DNA of 60,131 bases from Candidatus Altiarchaeales archaeon (GTDB lineage: Archaea > Altiarchaeota > Altiarchaeia > IMC4 > QMZM01): the NCBI GenBank assembly GCA_023252215.1, contig JAHEXG010000003.1, positions 1 through 60,131 of the forward strand, read 5' to 3'. The notes below the pieces were generated by a model. That model ran no database searches. It had not been told where the DNA came from and saw only the letters and a program-made list of their open reading frames with translations. The position numbers and the translations under genes were made by a program. This document shows, one piece after another, positions 5,896 through 38,978 of the stretch. Numbering within the stretch: position 1 is the stretch's first letter; each line of letters begins with the position of its first letter.

Positions 5896-5969
5896 TCTAT
5901 TAGCCGTCAGCATTGTCTTCGCTTCGCTCGACAGCAATCGGGGGGGAGGGTCAGGATGAACGGCGCAGC

Positions 5970-6010
5970 CTTTCAAAACTGGGTGGTTGAACTCAACCAC
6001 TCGGTTTGGT
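5970..6010 (+). repeat. HP-1 imperfect hairpin element, copy 2
   Basis: TTTCAAAACTGG-GTGGTTG-AACT-CAACCAC-TCGGTTTGGTG, 75 nt after the thiE stop. Confidence 0.8.
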
Positions 6011-7222: not shown

Positions 7223-7999
7223 CTATATCTCATAGCATTTCTTTGAATAGCCGCAGGACTCGCATTTTCTACCGCTCCCGTGGGGGCATATGTCCGGAAC
7301 CACTCCTTCAAGGATCTTGAACACTGCTTCCGAGGTCTCAGAAACCTTCTTTCTAAGGCTGTCAGTATTCATGACCGGCCTCATCTCCGGTACTCGCGTG
7401 TATTCTACAAAGCCGTAAGGTATTTTTTTCTTCGCCTGCACATCCTCTTCCAAGAGCAGGGCATAGGCGCACACCTGTATCCTATCCCCTTCCCAAACGC
7501 TCTCAGGCGGACTACAGGTCTTAATCTCCACAGGATAATAAAAGGATTCTTTCATGACCTTGTCTATCCTCCCGCACAGGCTCAGTTTCTCGGACGACAC
7601 AGGATAATCGACCCTCCACGGACTCATCCTGCGCAAGGCAGCATCAAAACCAAGGTCTTCTGCGATATAAGAAACCCGCTCACCCAATGCGCCCAAGTCG
7701 GCAAGGACCTCGGACCTCACAGCCTCAGCATCCTCTCTCCTAACAGAAGGATAATCTTCCAAGACGACTCCAAAAGAGCGCTCAACTACATCCCTCAAAG
7801 CAGAAACCAGGCCCCCGGCATCATCAACCGCTCCCAACAACTCCATCTGCTTAGCGATCAACGTCTTCCTCAACGCATGATCGAACAAACCCCTCTCCAG
7901 GCTGGCCACAGAATCAGGCTCAAGCCCCAGGACGCTGGAAAGATAAACGCTACGCGGACAAAAAGAATAAGAACTCAGAACCGAGACAGCAACTTTCAT
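7223..7999 (-). CDS. Cas4/DUF83-like PD-(D/E)XK nuclease with a 4-Cys cluster (no CRISPR-Cas nearby)
   Basis: N-terminal Cys (SYSFCPRSVY), GRIDKV...YPVEIKT core, C-terminal CESCGYSKKC (CX2CX5C). Confidence 0.65.
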   Translation of the reverse strand: MKVAVSVLSSYSFCPRSVYLSSVLGLEPDSVASLERGLFDHALRKTLIAKQMELLGAVDDAGGLVSALRDVVERSFGVVLEDYPSVRREDAEAVRSEVLADLGALGERVSYIAEDLGFDAALRRMSPWRVDYPVSSEKLSLCGRIDKVMKESFYYPVEIKTCSPPESVWEGDRIQVCAYALLLEEDVQAKKKIPYGFVEYTRVPEMRPVMNTDSLRKKVSETSEAVFKILEGVVPDICPHGSGRKCESCGYSKKCYEI

Positions 8000-8364
8000 G
8001 AGACGATCCTTACAGAATCCGCATTTTTTGGCTTGACCTCCAGCGCCCCCTTATACTCGTCCAACTCCCCGATAACGTCGACGCCGCACCCTTTAACTAC
8101 CCGGGAAGTCGCGTTGGCCATATAATAGCTCACAAAGACATCGATAACGCCGCTGCCATCGTCTACGGAAAATGTTACGCTCCCGCCCTTGAACTTGTAG
8201 ACCTCGGAAACATTGCCCCGGACATGAACCTGCCTGCCGATAGAACCAGAACCAAGCACGCCGATCTTTGAAACCGGCGGCTCCATAACCATGGAAGCAT
8301 ACGTAAAAATCAACAAGCCAAGCACCGAAACACCCAAGGCAACATAGACGATCCTGCCTGACAT
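7996..8364 (-). CDS. Membrane-anchored OB-fold (tRNA_anti-like) protein
   Basis: N-terminal TM segment, then the pattern VHVRGNVSEVYKFKGGSVTFSVDDGSGVIDVF...GELDEYKGALEV. Overlaps the Cas4-like start by 4 nt. Confidence 0.55.
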   Translation of the reverse strand: MSGRIVYVALGVSVLGLLIFTYASMVMEPPVSKIGVLGSGSIGRQVHVRGNVSEVYKFKGGSVTFSVDDGSGVIDVFVSYYMANATSRVVKGCGVDVIGELDEYKGALEVKPKNADSVRIVS

Positions 8365-8384
8365 CGTAAATGCCCGCCGGGTGC

Positions 8385-8543
8385 TTAAACCGATGCTTTT
8401 GCCGCTTTCTTCTTGTGCTTCCTGCGGATCTTATAGGTCTTCCCGCATCTCCTGCACTTCGTCGCACCGACAGGGTTCTTGGCGTTGCAGTTCATGCAGA
8501 TGCCTTTAAAGATCCTTGCCTCAGCCTCTAAAAACTTAGCCAT
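8385..8543 (-). CDS. rpl40e: Ribosomal protein L40e
   Basis: Manual translation [52 protein letters not shown]. Shorter than 60 aa, so absent from the track. Confidence 0.85.
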
Positions 8544-8589
8544 CGTTTCTGTGAAAATAAGATAGTGATTTGTGATTTAGAGCATTTAA

Positions 8590-8658
8590 ATCAACCTTCT
8601 GAAAGGTTGATCATCACTACGAGTATGTGGTACCTGAAGGTACCACAGAACGCATCAG
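8590..8658 (+). repeat. HP-2 double-hairpin module, copy B
   Basis: ATCAACC-TTCTGAAA-GGTTGAT..ACGAGTAT-GTGGTACC-TGAA-GGTACCAC-AGAACGCATCAG. Homologous to 24187-24253, with compensated stems. Confidence 0.7.
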
Positions 8659-8834
8659 TCGTCGGCCGACCCATCGAGCGAAGCGAGCATGGGTCCCAAT
8701 TTTTGTCCCTATGGGACATGTGCGTCGCACATTTTTCCAAGGCTTTTGCGCTTAGCGCATGCCTGCGGGCATCTTTTATTTTTAAGAAATGTCGGAAGGC
8801 CCGGCATGCCAGCAAGCTTGCTGGCAAAAAGGTT

Positions 8835-8981
8835 TAGCGGGGAGTAGATTTGAACTACTGACCTTCGGGTAACTCAGAAGTGTTTGTCTCATGAGTATTG
8901 CCTCTTATGAGCTTCGCCCGCGCCGAGCGATTTTACTCCTCATGCGCGTCCGACGAGCACTCCTGGCTGCTCAACCCCGCT
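8835..8981 (-). tRNA. Initiator-like tRNA-Met (CAU) with an interrupted anticodon arm (two putative non-canonical introns)
   Basis: A1:U72 acceptor AGCGGGG/CCCCGCT, D-arm GAGC-AGCCAGGAGT-GCTC, T-arm AGTAG-TTCAAAT-CTACT. Joining ..GTCGG + GCTCATAA + CCCGAAGGTC.. gives the anticodon arm TCGGG-CTCATAA-CCCGA with three G-C pairs. Confidence 0.55.
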
Positions 8982-9697
8982 GTATGTAAATCAATATTCC
9001 GTAGCACTTCTTGTCGGTGTTGAATATTGGTATTTGTCATATAATAACCAAGGTTTTTCCATATTTTGTACTTTGTTTCGTGTCTTGGGTTGTGGAATTT
9101 TATTTCATTTACCCATTTTTCAAGGATTTTTTTGCCGTTCATTTGTATCCTTATGCAGCCGTTTTGCTGGGCTGAAGTGATCGGCCGATATTCGAGGTTT
9201 GACAGGATTTCAAGTGTTTGTTTTCTCATCGGTGATGGGAGCATTTTTAGTTCTAGGCGGGGGTAAGCATGTTCTTTTTTGTTTTGCCTGTCAAAAATAA
9301 CGCATCCGTCGGTGTCAAACAGTCCTCTAAGGAAGTGTTTCTCCAAGCCTTCCTGGAAAATGAATGAGGGTATGATCGCCCGATCCCTCTTTGGCGAAGC
9401 AGCCATCCCCAGGTCCATTAAATATTCGTAAAACGGTTTTCCGAAATACATTAGTTCAAGGGTTCTTTCGCCGCGCTTAAATCGCAGGAGTGGTTCTTTG
9501 TCGAATAACCGGGTCATTAGCGGTCGTAAACAATTGGTGAAATATTCAAGGTTCTCTGACGCATCGCCGCTTATTTTCACCCGGTACTGTGTCTTGATCT
9601 TGTCCCCTGCTTTGCAATGATAACAACCAATTGATCCGTCGCCTAGTAAGGCACCTACGAATTCAGCGAGTTGAGCGTCTTGCTGGGGTTTTCTCAT
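8933..9697 (-). CDS. LAGLIDADG homing endonuclease (double-motif); the last 16 codons and the stop lie inside the tRNA gene
   Basis: Motifs FVGALLGDGSIG and FLRGLFDTDGCV. The ORF ends ...TAGLSSQECSSDAHEE*, encoded by tRNA positions 1-49. Confidence 0.75.
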   Translation of the reverse strand: MRKPQQDAQLAEFVGALLGDGSIGCYHCKAGDKIKTQYRVKISGDASENLEYFTNCLRPLMTRLFDKEPLLRFKRGERTLELMYFGKPFYEYLMDLGMAASPKRDRAIIPSFIFQEGLEKHFLRGLFDTDGCVIFDRQNKKEHAYPRLELKMLPSPMRKQTLEILSNLEYRPITSAQQNGCIRIQMNGKKILEKWVNEIKFHNPRHETKYKIWKNLGYYMTNTNIQHRQEVLRNIDLHTAGLSSQECSSDAHEE

Positions 9698-9801
9698 AAT
9701 CCTATTAAGTATTAGAATCCTAAATATGGGTTATTTTTGCACTCTAATTTTTGGATATTTTTAGTTCCCTGGGTCGATTATCTATATTGAGCGGGGTTTT
9801 T

Positions 9802-11147: not shown

Positions 11148-12488
11148 ATGGCTGATATTTCCGAGTCCGAGACCTTGGAGCTAAAGAAGTCTACGTCTGA
11201 ACTCCGGGAGGGTGTAATCTCCGTAGCGTCTATGCTAAACAAGCATGGGAAAGGCATCCTATACTTTGGCATAAGGAATGACGGTAAAGCTCTTGGTCAG
11301 GAAATCGGGGAGAGAACTTTAAGGGACGTATCACAGGCAATTTCAGAAAATATTGAGCCGAAGGTCTATCCAAAGATCAGCAAGGAAGATATAGGCGGTA
11401 AGATCTGCATCAAGGTCGAATTCTCCGGAAACAACAAGCCGTATTATGCTTATGGCAGAGCTTACGTGCGTGTAGCCGATGAGGATCGTCAGTTGTCTGC
11501 TAAGGAGATCGAAGAAACAATCCTTCGCAAGAACAAAGATAAGCTACGCTGGGACACTGAAGTATGTGAGAAGGCGACGGTGTCTGACATAAGTCCAAAG
11601 AAGCTTAAATCATATGTCCGGAAAGCACATCTGAGATATGATTCGATTGAAAATGCCTTACAAAAGCTTGGCCTGCGATCCGATGGAAAGATTTTAAACG
11701 CCGCAGTACTGTTATTTGGTCGAAAGCCCGAGACGTTTTTTCCAAATGCCCGCCTAAGGTGTGCAATATTTGCGACGACCGATACTCATCTTCCTCTTGA
11801 CATGCAGGACTATAAAGGAGACCTGTTCACTTTAATAGAAACTGCTCAGCAATACATCCTCCAAAACATACACGTGGGCATGAGGCTTGAAGGCCTGTAC
11901 CGCGTGGATGTGCCGGAAATATCCCAAGAAGCGTTCAGAGAAGCCATAATAAACGCCTTCTGCCACCGAGACTACAGGGAATACGACTCGGTAAACATAG
12001 CGATATTCCGCGACCGCCTGGAAATAAGAAGTCCAGGACTGCTGTATGGCGGACTTACTATAGAGAAGATCAGGCGAGACATGGTATCAGAGAGACGGAA
12101 TGAACTGATCGCCGACCTATTGCATAGGATACATTTCATAGAAAAATGGGGCCGTGGAATAAGCCTTATATTATCAAACGAGCCGACAGCGAACTTCAAG
12201 GAATCGGGAACGCATTTTATAACGACCTTTAAGAGAAAGAGCGTTGAAGCGCAGATGGGCGAGCAAACCGGAGGGTTGGTAGATAGGTTGGTAGATGGGT
12301 TGGTAGAAAACCAAAAGAAGATACTGCGCTTAGTGAAGGTAGACCCATCCATATCAAAAAGAGAACTGGCGCAGAAAACGGGTATCAGCACCACAGCAGT
12401 TGATAAAAACATATCTACTCTCAAGAAGAAAGGCCTGCTGAAACGGGTAGGTCCGGCTAAAGGGGGGCGATGGGAATTGAGTGGATAA
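11148..12488 (+). CDS. Schlafen/AlbA_2 domain + HATPase_c_4-like + C-terminal wHTH protein (COG2865 type)
   Basis: ESETLELKKS...MLNKHGKGILYFGIRNDG at the N-terminus and NAFCHRDY...IEKWGRGI in the middle. HTH at the C-terminus (ISKRELAQKTGISTTAVDKNISTLKKKGLL). Start chosen at ATG 11148. The upstream 270 nt of the track ORF look non-coding. Confidence 0.7.
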   Translation: MADISESETLELKKSTSELREGVISVASMLNKHGKGILYFGIRNDGKALGQEIGERTLRDVSQAISENIEPKVYPKISKEDIGGKICIKVEFSGNNKPYYAYGRAYVRVADEDRQLSAKEIEETILRKNKDKLRWDTEVCEKATVSDISPKKLKSYVRKAHLRYDSIENALQKLGLRSDGKILNAAVLLFGRKPETFFPNARLRCAIFATTDTHLPLDMQDYKGDLFTLIETAQQYILQNIHVGMRLEGLYRVDVPEISQEAFREAIINAFCHRDYREYDSVNIAIFRDRLEIRSPGLLYGGLTIEKIRRDMVSERRNELIADLLHRIHFIEKWGRGISLILSNEPTANFKESGTHFITTFKRKSVEAQMGEQTGGLVDRLVDGLVENQKKILRLVKVDPSISKRELAQKTGISTTAVDKNISTLKKKGLLKRVGPAKGGRWELSG

Positions 12489-23109: not shown

Positions 23110-24162
23110 ATGCAGGTAGGAATAGTCGGATACGGAGCATATGTGCCTAAATACCGGATAAAAGCAGAAGAGATAGCCGTCGTCTGGGGAGAAGACGCGG
23201 AAAAGATAAAAAGCGGTCTCTGCGTCCGGGAAAAATCAGTGCCCTCGATAGACGAAGACACGGCAACCATCGCAGTCACATGCGCAAGGAACGCGCTCGA
23301 ACAGGCAAAGATCGATCCTGCGGACATAGGCGCAATATACGTCGGTTCCGAGTCCCATCCATACGCTGTGAAGACTACTTCTAGCATGGTGGCCGAGGCC
23401 ATAGAGGCAACTCCCGTGCTCACGGCCGCTGACTATCAGTTCGCCTGCAAGGCAGGGACTGCGGCGATGCAGACTGTCATGGGGATGGTTGCTTCCAAGA
23501 TGATAAAATACGGAGTCGCCATCGGAGCAGACACCTCCCAGGGAAAACCCGGAGACGCGCTTGAGTACACTGCCAGCGCAGGAGGCGCAGCATACATAAT
23601 CGGCGCAGAAAACGTCCTGGCGATAATACGCGATACCTATTCATACACGACCGATACCCCTGACTTCTGGAGGCGGGAAGGAGCGGAATTCCCAAGCCAC
23701 GGCTCAAGGTTCACCGCGGAACCTGCATACTTCAGGCACGTCCTCGCGGCGGCGAAGGGGATACTGGAGAAGAACAAGATGCAGCCCAAAGACTTTAAGT
23801 ACGCAGTCTTCCACCAGCCCAACGGAAAATTCCCGCTGAACGCGGCAAAGAAGCTGGGATTCACAAACGAACAAGTATCAACCGGCCTGCTTACGCCGAT
23901 GATAGGGAACACGTATTCGGGAGCCACACCCCTCGGCCTCGCGGCAGTCTTGGACGAAGCATGCGCAGGCGACAAGATACTCGCGGTATCATACGGTTCG
24001 GGGGCCGGAAGCGACGCGTTCATAATCGAAGTGACGAAGGAAAACGAGAAGCGCAGGAACAAAAAGACCGTGAAGTCCTACATAAACAAGAAGGAATACC
24101 TGACCTATTCGATATACTCTAAATTCAAGGGGAAAATAAAGGGCGTCTCCCTGGAGAAATAA
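23110..24162 (+). CDS. Hydroxymethylglutaryl-CoA synthase
   Basis: 350 aa, archaeal HMGCS pattern ([15 protein letters not shown]...[12 protein letters not shown]...FHQPNGKFP...SYGSGAGSD). Confidence 0.9.
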
Positions 24163-24163
24163 G

Positions 24164-24301
24164 ATGACCGGAAAGAAAGTCGCAATGTGAGGCTACAGCC
24201 TCACTCACCTGCCACGAGTATTGTGGTGCCCAGGGCACCACGTAACGCATGAGTATTTTAGGAATTACGAATGACAAAATGACCGGAAAGAAAGTCGCAA
24301 T
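24164..24301 (+). repeat. Perfect 23-bp direct repeat (24164-24186 and 24279-24301) flanking a 92-nt hairpin insert
   Basis: ATGACCGGAAAGAAAGTCGCAAT occurs twice. It is the thiolase start codon plus the next 20 nt. Confidence 0.9.
24187..24253 (+). repeat. HP-2 double-hairpin module, copy A
   Basis: GTGAGGC-TACA-GCCTCAC..ACGAGTATT-GTGGTGCC-CAG-GGCACCAC-GTAACGCATGAG. Confidence 0.7.
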
Positions 24302-25445
24302 AATAGGAGTCGGGCTCACAAAATTCGGAGAGCTCTGGGAGAAAAGCTACCGCGACCTCATAACCGAGGCCGGAGTAAAGGCCATAAGCGATGCCGGAAT
24401 AGACGGAATAGACGTGCAGGAACTGTTCGTAGGCTCCATGTCCCCCGGCCTGTTCGCTGCGCAGGAGCATATAGGCGCGCTTGTCGCCGACTACGCAGGG
24501 TTAACGGGCATCCCCGCAACAAGGGTGGAAGCCGCATGCGCTTCAGGAGGCCTTGCGCTCAGGCAGGCATATACTTCGATAATGGCTGGAAGAAACGACA
24601 TCGTAGTCGCAGGCGGCGTGGAAAAGATGACCGACGTACCCACGGGCCTTGCAATGACCGCCCTAATGGGGGCGGGAGACGAAGAATGGGAAGCATTCAA
24701 CGGAGCGACATTCCCCGCGCTTTACGCCCTGATGGCCCGAAGACACATGATGGAATACGGAACCACGATAGAACAGATATCAATGGTCTCAGTCAAAAAC
24801 CACGCGAACGCAAAACACAACGAATACGCGCAATTCCAGTTCGAAGTATCATTGGAAGACGTTCTAAATTCCGCCAAGGTCGCAGAGCCTCTGCGCCTGC
24901 TGCACTGCTCGCCCATAACCGACGGAGCGGCAGCGGTCATACTCGCAAGCGAAAAGAAAGCAAAAGAAATATGCGACAACCCTGTCTGGATAACCGCATC
25001 GGCAATGGCGACCGACACGCTCGCCCTAAGCGATCGAAAGAGCTTGACGCAGACCAATTCGGCCATTCTCGCGGCAAAAGACGCCTACAAGCAGGCAGGA
25101 GTCGGCGCAAAAGACATAGACTTTGCGGAGGTCCACGACTGTTTCGCAATAGCAGAGCTTTTGGCAATAGAAGCGCTCGGCTTCTGCAAGATAGGCGCGG
25201 GCGGAAAATACACGGAAGACGGGCACACCAAGATCGGCGGAGAACACCCTGTAAACACGAGCGGAGGCTTGAAAGGAAAAGGACATCCTGTCGGCACGAC
25301 TGGAATAGCGCAGGCAATAGAGGCGACGCTTCAACTACGCGGGACAGCCGGGAAAAGACAGGTCAAAGACGCAAACATCGGGCTCACGCACAATGTGGGA
25401 GGATCGGGTGCGACCGCGGTTGTTCACATATACCGGAGGGACTAA
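24279..25445 (+). CDS. Acetyl-CoA acetyltransferase (archaeal thiolase)
   Basis: MTGKKVAIIGVGLTKFGE...ACASGG...HNVGGSG. Start placed at ATG 24279 (second repeat copy) rather than track start 24249, which lies inside the insert. Confidence 0.85.
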   Translation: MTGKKVAIIGVGLTKFGELWEKSYRDLITEAGVKAISDAGIDGIDVQELFVGSMSPGLFAAQEHIGALVADYAGLTGIPATRVEAACASGGLALRQAYTSIMAGRNDIVVAGGVEKMTDVPTGLAMTALMGAGDEEWEAFNGATFPALYALMARRHMMEYGTTIEQISMVSVKNHANAKHNEYAQFQFEVSLEDVLNSAKVAEPLRLLHCSPITDGAAAVILASEKKAKEICDNPVWITASAMATDTLALSDRKSLTQTNSAILAAKDAYKQAGVGAKDIDFAEVHDCFAIAELLAIEALGFCKIGAGGKYTEDGHTKIGGEHPVNTSGGLKGKGHPVGTTGIAQAIEATLQLRGTAGKRQVKDANIGLTHNVGGSGATAVVHIYRRD

Positions 25446-25446
25446 G

Positions 25447-25845
25447 ATGAAAGGATTAGCTTCTTACTGGAGATTGATTCCTCAAAGGTATAACCTTATT
25501 GGAACCGAGTGCAATCACTGCAAGCAAAAGTTCTTCCCTCCGAGGAAGATATGCCCCACCTGTAGACGGCATGGGGAGATAAAGAGCTATAAATTCAAAG
25601 GCGTTGGAGAGATTTACTCGTACACCGTAATACATGCTGCGCCCGATGGGTTCGAGTTTCAGAAGCCTTACGCGCTAGGGCTCATAAGGTTGGTCGAAGG
25701 ACCTCTTGTGACTGCGCAGATCGTGGACTGTAAGCCGGACGAAGTAGAAGTTGGGAAGAAAGTGGAAATGGTTTTTAGGAAGATTTTTGCCGGTGGGAAG
25801 GAAGGGACTATCCGGTATGGATATAAGTTTAAGTTGGTTGACTGA
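25447..25845 (+). CDS. DUF35 OB-fold/Zn-ribbon protein (scaffold of the thiolase/HMGCS complex)
   Basis: CNHCKQKFFPPRKICPTC...YSYTVIH...GLIRLVEGP. ATG lies 1 nt after the thiolase stop. Confidence 0.8.
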   Translation: MKGLASYWRLIPQRYNLIGTECNHCKQKFFPPRKICPTCRRHGEIKSYKFKGVGEIYSYTVIHAAPDGFEFQKPYALGLIRLVEGPLVTAQIVDCKPDEVEVGKKVEMVFRKIFAGGKEGTIRYGYKFKLVD

Positions 25846-25868
25846 TTATTTGTTTTCTTCTATTGGCC

Positions 25869-25908
25869 TTTCAAAACTGGGTGGTTGAACTCAACCACGC
25901 GGTTCGGG
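25869..25908 (+). repeat. HP-1 imperfect hairpin element, copy 3
   Basis: TTTCAAAACTGG-GTGGTTG-AACT-CAACCAC-GCGGTTCGGG, 23 nt after the DUF35 stop. Confidence 0.8.
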
Positions 25909-25911
25909 CGG

Positions 25912-25951
25912 GAAGGGACTATCAGGTACGGCTGCAAATGGGGTGCTTGAG
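25912..25951 (+). pseudogene. Second, divergent copy of the DUF35 gene 3' end
   Basis: GAAGGGACTATCAGGTACGGCTGCAAATGGGGTGCTTGA (EGTIRYGCKWGA*) versus the genuine 25801-25845 (EGTIRYGYKFKLVD*). The three differences in the first 7 codons are all synonymous. Confidence 0.65.
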
Positions 25952-38646: not shown

Positions 38647-38668
38647 GGGACCGTGGGGTAGCTTGTCC
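38647..38668 (+). pseudogene. Isolated copy of the tRNA-Pro 5' end (19 nt identical, 21/22)
   Basis: GGGACCGTGGGGTAGCTTGtCC versus the genuine 38752-38773. Followed by a trailer-like hairpin instead of the rest of a tRNA. Confidence 0.65.
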
Positions 38669-38751
38669 AGAACTCTCCCAAAGGGATGGTTTCATCCCCA
38701 AAAGAAAATTAAATTATAGAAACAATAAAAAATTTAATAAAATTCATTAAT

Positions 38752-38825
38752 GGGACCGTGGGGTAGCTTGGCCATCCTTCTAGCTTGGGGTGCTAGAAAC
38801 CTGTGTTCAAATCACAGCGGTCCCA
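38752..38825 (+). tRNA. tRNA-Pro (GGG)
   Basis: GGGACCG/CGGTCCC acceptor, anticodon arm CTAGC-TTGGGGT-GCTAG, T-arm CTGTG-TTCAAAT-CACAG. Confidence 0.85.
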
Positions 38826-38913
38826 TAGGAATCCCCCTCAAGGGATTATTCCATTCCCAAAAGAAAAGACAATGGGGTCTAAAGACCCCCCGTGGGGTGG
38901 GTCAGGATTAACC

Positions 38914-38952
38914 TAAAACTGGGGAGGGGCAAAGCCCCTCCGCGGTTTGGAG
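38914..38952 (+). repeat. HP-1 imperfect hairpin element, copy 4 (upper stem fully compensated)
   Basis: TAAAACTGG-GGAGGGGC-AAA-GCCCCTCC-GCGGTTTGGAG. Confidence 0.8.
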
Positions 38953-38978
38953 CTGTGTTCAAATCACAGCGGTCCCAT
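38953..38978 (+). repeat. Exact 26-nt copy of the tRNA-Pro 3' end
   Basis: CTGTGTTCAAATCACAGCGGTCCCAT is identical to 38801-38826. Confidence 0.9.

Follow-up and report, generated by a model that had tools for sequence, protein, structure and literature searches.

A hairpin-bearing insert flanked by a long target-site duplication at the HMG-CoA synthase–thiolase junction of an Altiarchaeales archaeon

Here we describe a short, non-coding insert that separates the genes for HMG-CoA synthase (HMGCS) and thiolase on a contig of a Candidatus Altiarchaeales archaeon (GenBank assembly GCA_023252215.1, contig JAHEXG010000003.1, positions 1 to 60,131 of the forward strand; this whole stretch of 60,131 nt is referred to as the window). 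The insertion is derived and has duplicated its target, its recurrence at the same site is seen in a second lineage, and the insert is a member of a family, denominated HP-2, whose core is structurally constrained. As to its nature, our leading interpretation, to which we give about an even chance, is that a non-autonomous, hairpin-bearing HP-2 element was inserted at the HMGCS/thiolase junction by a staggered cut of about 26 bp and was moved in trans.

Results

The thiolase start is repeated on either side of the insert

An exact 23-mer, ATGACCGGAAAGAAAGTCGCAAT, occurs at 24164-24186 and again at 24279-24301, with a start-to-start distance of 115 nt, the left copy beginning one base after the TAA of HMGCS (24160-24162). 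By chance, 60 kb should contain about 5e-7 exact pairs of this length spaced by up to 600 nt (60131 x 600 / 4^23). The original prediction, which was made from the sequence alone, had proposed this perfect 23-bp duplication, and it is confirmed here; in fact, the similarity continues for 3 nt upstream, giving a 26-nt repeat (24161-24186, AAGATGACC..., and 24276-24301, AAAATGACC...) that is identical at 25/26 positions, with AAG versus AAA as the single mismatch. Originally, the duplication probably spanned 26 bp, one base of which was substituted afterwards in the window, and this mismatch suggests some age.

The left copy encodes, as had been claimed, only the peptide MTGKKVAM* (codons ATG ACC GGA AAG AAA GTC GCA ATG TGA). 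This relic open reading frame (ORF) retains the original start codon and a Shine-Dalgarno-like GGAG, its TGA stop is made by the first bases of the insert, and it is the sole ORF in or at an insert that is otherwise short and non-coding (92 nt in the window, 123 nt in the second lineage described below).

Misassembly does not account for the insert. The two repeats and an identical insert are found on an ENA contig (L081, which shares 99.7% identity over 3.4 kb, 7 bases being mismatched) and on a Logan contig (L082, 100% identity), and each of these contigs encodes the exact 398-aa thiolase product annotated for the window. Thus, three assemblies made by different pipelines agree base for base, and four Joint Genome Institute (JGI) assemblies of another lineage show a homologous structure, which leaves an assembly or chimera artefact, the first of the objections foreseen with the original prediction, as good as eliminated.

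The site is empty in related genomes

The nearest species representatives are Altiarchaeota metagenome-assembled genomes (MAGs) with at most 73% thiolase protein identity; in these, as in archaea further removed, the end of HMGCS overlaps the start of thiolase or is separated from it by about 15 nt at most. Closer relatives (L083-L085 and L095-L098) were found through a protein database, and in them the junction is tight and carries one repeat copy: 1 nt separates the genes in the Candidatus Altiarchaeia MAG GCA_049299895.1 (L095-L097; thiolase 95.4% identical in amino acids), in L098 (95.4%) and in L085 (87%), 5 nt separate them in L083 (94%), and the two genes overlap at ATGA in L084 (90%). 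By BLAST, the same 26 nt of L095 (9998-10023) match both copies of the window, and along about 19 kb of synteny with L095 the insert is the only window-specific indel of at least 12 nt inside long aligned segments. An empty-site allele would join ...GAGAAATAA(A/G)ATGACCGGAAAGAAAGTCGCAATAATAGG directly.

Since the relatives have a single repeat copy and a tight junction, the 115-bp unit, formed by the 92-nt insert and one repeat copy, is a derived insertion with target-site duplication. This bears out the ancestral stop/start junction that had been postulated, supplies the allele lacking the 115-bp unit (empty in L083, L084, L085, L095 and L098), and answers the second objection, namely that the spacer might itself be ancestral: five relatives are single-copy. 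The closest thiolase relative, P0126 (JGI 3300075153; 96.4% amino acid identity), has, according to its gene map, spacers of 87 nt between HMGCS and thiolase and of 85 nt between thiolase and DUF35.

The insert contains a structurally conserved core

The 92 nt that separate the copies hold, as had been proposed, the HP-2 module, here seen as two perfect hairpins (24187-24204 and 24223-24241) together with conserved single-stranded motifs (Table 1), and a second, diverged copy (winB) lies elsewhere in the window. The core of the family can be written ACGRGTAT-hairpin-NNAACGCAT. The 5' motif, ACGAGTATT, is invariant at 8/9 positions in all 6 distinct copies, its 4th base being A or G and its last T being missing in 2 copies; the AT that completes the 3' motif (24249-24250) already lies within the variable right arm, which also contains a TATA-like GTATTTTAGG some 18-27 nt 5' of the true thiolase start.

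Table 1. Features of the HMGCS-thiolase junction and of the second HP-2 copy in the window
Feature	Position	Strand	Basis or remark
HMG-CoA synthase gene, 350 aa	23110..24162	+	translation; orthologues match Pfam HMG_CoA_synt_N / ACP_syn_III_C
Left repeat copy, 26 nt, where the thiolase originally started	24161..24186	+	single copy of L095 aligns here
Relic 8-codon ORF, MTGKKVAM*	24164..24190	+	read from the sequence; present in L099 as well
Hairpin P1, GTGAGGC-UACA-GCCUCAC	24187..24204	+	directly abuts the left repeat
HP-2 core, 5' motif ACGAGTATT, single-stranded	24214..24222	+	alignment of 6 copies
Hairpin P2, GUGGUGCC-CAG-GGCACCAC	24223..24241	+	outer GUGG/CCAC invariant, inner pairs covary
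GTAACGC, first seven bases of the 3' motif NNAACGCAT	24242..24248	+	alignment; model R1 match, 65.1 bits
Right arm of the insert, variable, A/T-rich; in-frame ATG at 24249	24249..24275	+	
Right copy of the target duplication; functional thiolase ATG at 24279	24276..24301	+	single copy of L095 aligns here too
Thiolase gene; its canonical start gives 388 aa, as in all relatives	24279..25445	+	
DUF35 gene (OB-fold / zinc-ribbon), third operon member	25447..25845	+	
Second HP-2 copy (winB): upstream hairpin, then ACGAGTAT-GTGGTACCTGAAGGTACCAC-AGAACGCAT	8590..8665	+	model R1 match, 62.8 bits

Gene callers start the thiolase at the in-frame ATG inside the insert, which yields the 398-aa product. The 10-aa extension, MSILGITNDK (24249-24278), is probably an annotation artefact: all the other members of the thiolase cluster (22/22) have 388 aa, and the extension is unlikely to be real because the second lineage carries an in-frame stop at this position.

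In the six distinct copies, ACGRGTAT(T), GTGG...CCAC and NNAACGCAT are invariant. The evidence for structure rests on the covariation of hairpin P2, since the overall folding energy of the region is unexceptional (z = -0.5) and uninformative by itself: 3/8 pairs show compensatory changes and 97.8% of the cells are paired, a result reached by 1/500 shuffles. Outside this core of about 40 nt the sequence varies, and every copy has at least one upstream hairpin.

HP-2 is a small family found beside genes and transfer RNAs

A covariance model, R1, was built from five copies and run on the window with filters off; it found only the two window copies there, and no others in about 650 kb of related loci (the Altiarchaeota genome loci L001-L010, the 21-kb L095 and L103-L105), while the scores of all the copies lie between 57 and 71 bits. 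A degenerate pattern search of 241 million metagenome records recovered the core in 4 contigs that represent 3 distinct loci: (i) a stop/start junction between two feoA genes (L087/L092); (ii) a position about 650 nt upstream of rpl40e (L090); and (iii) a site next to a tRNA, of whose 3' end some 25 nt are imperfectly duplicated at the flank of the insert (L093). The winB copy sits between a conserved hairpin and the TATA box of rpl40e and is missing at the exact spot in L103 and L104, which makes it a lineage-specific insertion as well. The idea that further HP-2 inserts with flanking repeats might exist was thus partly borne out, by winB, by the three metagenome loci and by the imperfect flank in L093, with no more than two copies in the window itself. 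HP-2 lies in either orientation relative to neighbouring genes, and it adjoins tRNA 3'-end fragments in L093, in L090 and near window 8838-8873.

HP-2 was not found in viral contigs, phage records or plasmid records, and our literature search found no description of such an element. In the window, no Rfam family reached its gathering score; in E-value mode the matches were at chance level (E >=1 in 24100-24350 and E >=0.9 in 8300-9000). By eye, on both strands, the insert did not fit several known RNA elements: it lacks the conserved boxes of a C/D box small RNA (sRNA), it fits neither a K-turn nor a hammerhead-type core, and the AGC triad of a group II intron domain V is absent. An archaeal bulge-helix-bulge intron would require a palindromic 4-mer and an inner helix; the corresponding sequence is CCGG in the window but ACAGGA in L099, and the inner helix is absent. 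Translational bypassing is unnecessary, as the thiolase retains its own start codon.

The same site is occupied in a second lineage

Four JGI contigs of another lineage (L099-L102; thiolase 95.1% identical in amino acids and 84% in DNA) have a 147-nt HMGCS-thiolase spacer. In L099 the junction reads GAGAAATAAAATGACAGGAAAGAAAGTCGCAAT, then a 123-nt insert, then (AAA)ATGACAGGAAAGAAAGTCGCAAT AATCGG, so that an exact 26-mer (26/26) is repeated at the same site and in the same orientation as in the window. Both inserts start with GTGAGGCTA, end with GAATGACAAA and share the linker motifs CACTCACC and TAACGCAT. They also share the HP-2 core, and the rest of the family has only this internal core, and not the ends, in common with them. 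In L099 the counterpart of P1 is an outer GTGAG/CTCAC stem around two extra hairpins, and the second hairpin is different yet still paired, with two compensatory double changes relative to the window.

The two occupied lineages are not sisters. The nearest relative of L099 is L098 (90% DNA identity), in which the site is empty, and the window, judged by DNA identity, branches off outside the group of L095, L098, L099 and L083. When the window is compared with L099, identity is 56% at the four-fold degenerate sites of thiolase and 42% at those of HMGCS; it reaches 73% over the aligned columns of the two inserts, and 24/26 positions agree in the left, non-coding copies of the repeat. An old, neutrally drifting single insertion is therefore ruled out, since repeats and inserts are far more alike than the neutral sites. 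What is left are two fairly recent separate insertions, one old insertion kept by selection with conversion and precise losses, or a mixture of these. The claim that the insert is young consequently looks doubtful, given a related insert at the same site in a lineage at 84% DNA identity and the 25/26 mismatch already mentioned.

We hold it unlikely that a single old insertion has been kept by selection as an intercistronic RNA element, its repeats being homogenised by gene conversion and the empty sites being precise losses; it could act as a processing or stability hairpin, or as a terminator plus promoter that uncouples HMGCS from thiolase and DUF35. Such a history would account for the shared ends and linkers, for an insert identity well above that of the neutral sites, for the two compensatory double changes in P2 and for the conservation of the 8-codon relic ORF, and hairpins flanked by direct repeats are generally known to be prone to precise deletion. 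It demands, on the other hand, at least 2-3 independent precise losses (L098, L095 and L083) plus conversion over a 26-bp tract, and neither the ordinary stability of the fold nor the presence of HP-2 in both orientations relative to its neighbours speaks for a selected RNA.

Occupation of one site in one orientation by two non-sister lineages is also what site-specific recombination would leave behind. If the insert were such a scar, left by a miniature remnant of an integrative element or by a derivative mobilisable in cis, the 26-mer would be an attachment site, the repeats attL and attR, and the HP-2 core a binding region for a recombinase or accessory protein; the tRNA 3'-end fragments near HP-2 in L093, L090 and the window are typical integrase hot spots, and the repeats at tRNA-Pro described below end precisely at the tRNA ends. 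Such a scar, which the original prediction had offered as one of its options, is in our judgement unlikely. At one synonymous position, the two repeat copies of each genome both show the base peculiar to that lineage (C/C for the window, A/A for L099), which is predicted by a fresh duplication and not by an attP x attB exchange; repeats at unrelated targets are uniformly 22-26 bp long, whereas the attachment cores of different elements vary widely; and the scan of 30 window ORFs yielded no integrase.

Other hairpin-rich inserts lie between repeats of similar length

Repeats of the same type were observed at other gene boundaries: (i) in the window, the 3' end of tRNA-Pro(GGG) is repeated exactly (26/26; 38801-38826 and 38953-38978), with the copy 152 nt downstream; (ii) the 5' end of the same gene is repeated at 22/23 positions (38647-38669 and 38752-38774), with the copy 105 nt upstream; (iii) in L092, a 20-nt overlap of a DnaJ-like gene and the next gene is contained in a duplication (9516-9540 and 9732-9756; 24/25) that encloses a hairpin-rich insert of 191 nt and leaves both genes intact; and (iv) in L006, a 22-mer is repeated (20/22) at the 5' end of a tRNA. 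The tRNA-Pro repeats stop exactly at the tRNA ends, and hairpin-rich sequence separates the copies from the gene. Each such insert has a hairpin directly 3' of the left repeat; their sequences differ, and the HP-2 core is present in only some of them. Exact repeats of this type number four in 168 kb of Altiarchaeota DNA, a small sample; in 474 kb of other archaeal DNA the matches are mostly longer tandem duplications. The near-constant length of 22-26 bp at unrelated targets is our main argument for integration with a fixed stagger over an assortment of integrase attachment cores.

A broader proposal, which we put forward tentatively and think rather less likely than the reading of the insert as a mobile HP-2 element, is that Altiarchaeia possess a 'new' integration system whose ruler measures about 26 bp (TnsB-like, Cas1-like or novel) and which moves hairpin cassettes with the core ACGRGTAT-hairpin-NNAACGCAT and without terminal inverted repeats to gene and tRNA boundaries, the same thiolase site having been hit independently twice. 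If so, the insertions at boundaries would reflect either a preference of the system or the survival of those alone, and the long duplication would rebuild both gene ends, so that operon junctions and overlapping genes could be split.

The heterogeneity of these inserts and their lack of common ends would also be expected if no mobile element were involved, and a staggered break or a template switch had been repaired with a copied hairpin-rich stretch, duplicating the overhang; the hairpin right after the left repeat in each of them looks as if hairpins stalled or primed synthesis. Break-repair filler of this kind seems improbable to us, because it leaves unexplained both the near-constant repeat length and the related insert found at the same site and in the same orientation in two lineages, and the window contains no identical donor copy of the insert.

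Discussion

According to the leading interpretation, that of a non-autonomous HP-2 element, the two target strands would be cut about 26 nt apart, and fill-in of the gaps would duplicate AAAATGACCGGAAAGAAAGTCGCAAT. Since the element encodes nothing, it would be mobilised in trans by a separate enzyme, and since the duplicated block contains the thiolase start, the gene would be rebuilt downstream and the event tolerated. The insert would break the translational coupling between HMGCS and thiolase: the old GGAG site would now serve the 8-codon relic ORF, which ends at the first hairpin, and the thiolase would start independently, possibly from the promoter-like, A/T-rich right arm. To judge from the sequence, the true thiolase start appears to be without a good ribosome-binding site, GTATTTTAGG in the right arm possibly acts as a promoter, and a leaderless thiolase transcript, with this TATA-like element 18-27 nt upstream, is conceivable.

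Several points weigh against this interpretation: (i) a Pfam scan of the 30 window ORFs revealed no transposase, integrase, reverse transcriptase, Cas1 or PolB; (ii) the insert has internal hairpins and no terminal inverted repeats, and its ends, GTGAGGCTAC... and ...CGAATGACAAA, are not complementary; (iii) the various inserts between repeats have no end sequence in common, and therefore a single element family cannot explain all of them; (iv) the copy number is low, with two cores in 60 kb and four further contigs (3 loci) in the 241 million records; (v) for one site to be hit twice with such precision, a strong target specificity is required that is not otherwise seen; and (vi) one repeat does not fit a simple target duplication, namely the imperfect one at the 3' end of DUF35 (25795-25820 and 25906-25931; 22/26, 85%), which lies directly after an HP-1 hairpin (see below) and for which the relatives place the native gene end after the left copy.

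HP-2 resembles several known systems and differs from each of them. Like miniature transposable elements with inverted repeats (MITEs), the HP-2 insert is small (92-123 nt), non-coding and structured, has a target duplication, is present in some relatives and absent from others, and sits at an intergenic or junction site. In contrast to MITEs, it lacks terminal inverted repeats, makes a duplication of 23-26 bp where the usual length is 2-10 bp, is present in very low copy, conserves an internal core of about 40 nt instead of its ends, and has no known parent insertion sequence (IS). The likeness to repetitive extragenic palindromic (REP) sequences and bacterial interspersed mosaic elements (BIMEs) lies in small hairpins that stand between operon genes in either orientation and whose stems vary while pairing is kept. 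The likely effect of REP and BIME sequences is on mRNA stability and differential expression. They are, however, high-copy, mobilised by REP-associated tyrosine transposases (RAYT, Y1) and free of target duplications, whereas HP-2 is low-copy with a long duplication. To our knowledge, archaeal insertion sequences and MITEs have not been described with a duplication fixed at about 26 bp in the absence of terminal inverted repeats; if HP-2 is indeed mobile, this combination hints that an integrase or transposase has gone unrecognised in a phylum whose members are known from metagenomes only.

In duplication length, HP-2 matches the IS1202 group, whose TnsB-like DDE transposases generate target duplications of 16-28 bp (PMC10132070), a range that includes the 23-26 bp of HP-2. 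The original prediction had held the duplication to be longer than ordinary IS transposases make; this stands for most of them, this group being an exception. One possible register of the insert, TGTGAGG...GAATGACA, gives the 5'-TGT...ACA-3' ends of Tn7/IS1202-type elements with a 24-bp duplication, both in the window and in L099, a weak and post hoc likeness. Nevertheless, IS1202 elements are bacterial, 1.5 kb long, bounded by inverted repeats of 24-26 bp and equipped with their own transposase, whereas HP-2 is archaeal, has no extended inverted repeat and no transposase among the scanned window ORFs, and its other inserts lack the TGT...ACA ends. In Pyrobaculum calidifontis, MITE-like C/D box sRNA elements (PMC6009581) set an archaeal precedent for small, structured-RNA-like mobile repeats at gene boundaries. 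Conserved inverted repeats flank these elements, which also carry C and D boxes; HP-2, inspected as above, has neither.

Integration by a Cas1-family enzyme, either a casposase, as had been suggested, or off-target CRISPR adaptation, would also be staggered and ruler-like, with a long duplication of fixed or nearly constant length and a preference for gene ends; indeed, the 26-bp duplication at the 3' end of tRNA-Pro in the window recalls the casposon of Aciduliprofundum boonei, which targets a tRNA-Pro 3' end too (PMC5137440). Casposons, however, make a 15-bp target duplication, require terminal inverted repeats (PMC5137440) and encode their own Cas1 and PolB, none of which was seen for HP-2 or among the 30 window ORFs scanned, and CRISPR spacers measure about 30-40 bp against 82-191 bp for the inserts. 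The only Cas-like gene in the window is a Cas4-type nuclease kept in relatives. We therefore regard a Cas1-family origin as very unlikely. As to the nuclease itself, the Pfam scan otherwise found housekeeping genes only; it is a stand-alone, Cas4-type PD-(D/E)XK enzyme that forms a pair with an OB-fold gene (7223-8364, minus strand), is kept in L103-L105 and has no other cas genes nearby.

If a mobile HP-2 element is the right explanation, a mobile element can enter a translationally coupled operon, or overlapping genes, with both genes surviving. The thiolase, HMGCS and DUF35 products are known to form a stoichiometric complex. Breaking the coupling of genes for complex partners may alter their expression ratios, and the insert may in this way shift those of the mevalonate pathway.

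Additional observations

A second family of hairpins, HP-1, has the form ...GGGG.G.GTCAGGAT...CTTTCAAAACTGG-long stem-CGGTTTGG, with stems that covary between copies. It occurs in the window at 1010-1139, 5940-6010, 25866-25905 and 38885-38952, in L095 at 11590-11690 and in L099 at about 2570-2660, and one copy lies downstream of the DUF35 gene in all three. HP-1 looks tRNA-derived, because three copies are followed by a sequence resembling a T-arm and acceptor stem and because one copy gives a weak Rfam tRNA match (15.3 bits), beyond which no Rfam family was found for these hairpins. The HP-1 pattern also had 17 viral matches, which lack the hairpin and are due to chance.

The window also contains unusual tRNA loci. 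The tRNA-Met gene is represented by its 3' part only (8838-8873, minus strand), which matches the intact gene of L103 from position 38 on, the canonical intron or split position; its 5' half was not found in the window, which leaves a split tRNA gene and a pseudogene as the two readings of the fragment. Immediately upstream, an ORF of 254 aa (8933-9697, minus strand) shows LAGLIDADG-like motifs by eye and has no Pfam match. The tRNA-Trp(CCA) gene (692-853) has an 87-nt intron and was seen only with the intron option of ARAGORN and as a weak Rfam tRNA match. In L095 (3536-5185), an intein with a LAGLIDADG domain is present in the MCM gene (1240 aa), and the window MCM (at about 19314, 691 aa) does not have it. 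Finally, comparison of window 8640-8830 with L103 reveals an extra hairpin-rich stretch of about 74 nt after the trailer of the tRNA-Met fragment, and the intergenic DNA of the window lineage seems to grow by gaining small GC-rich hairpins.

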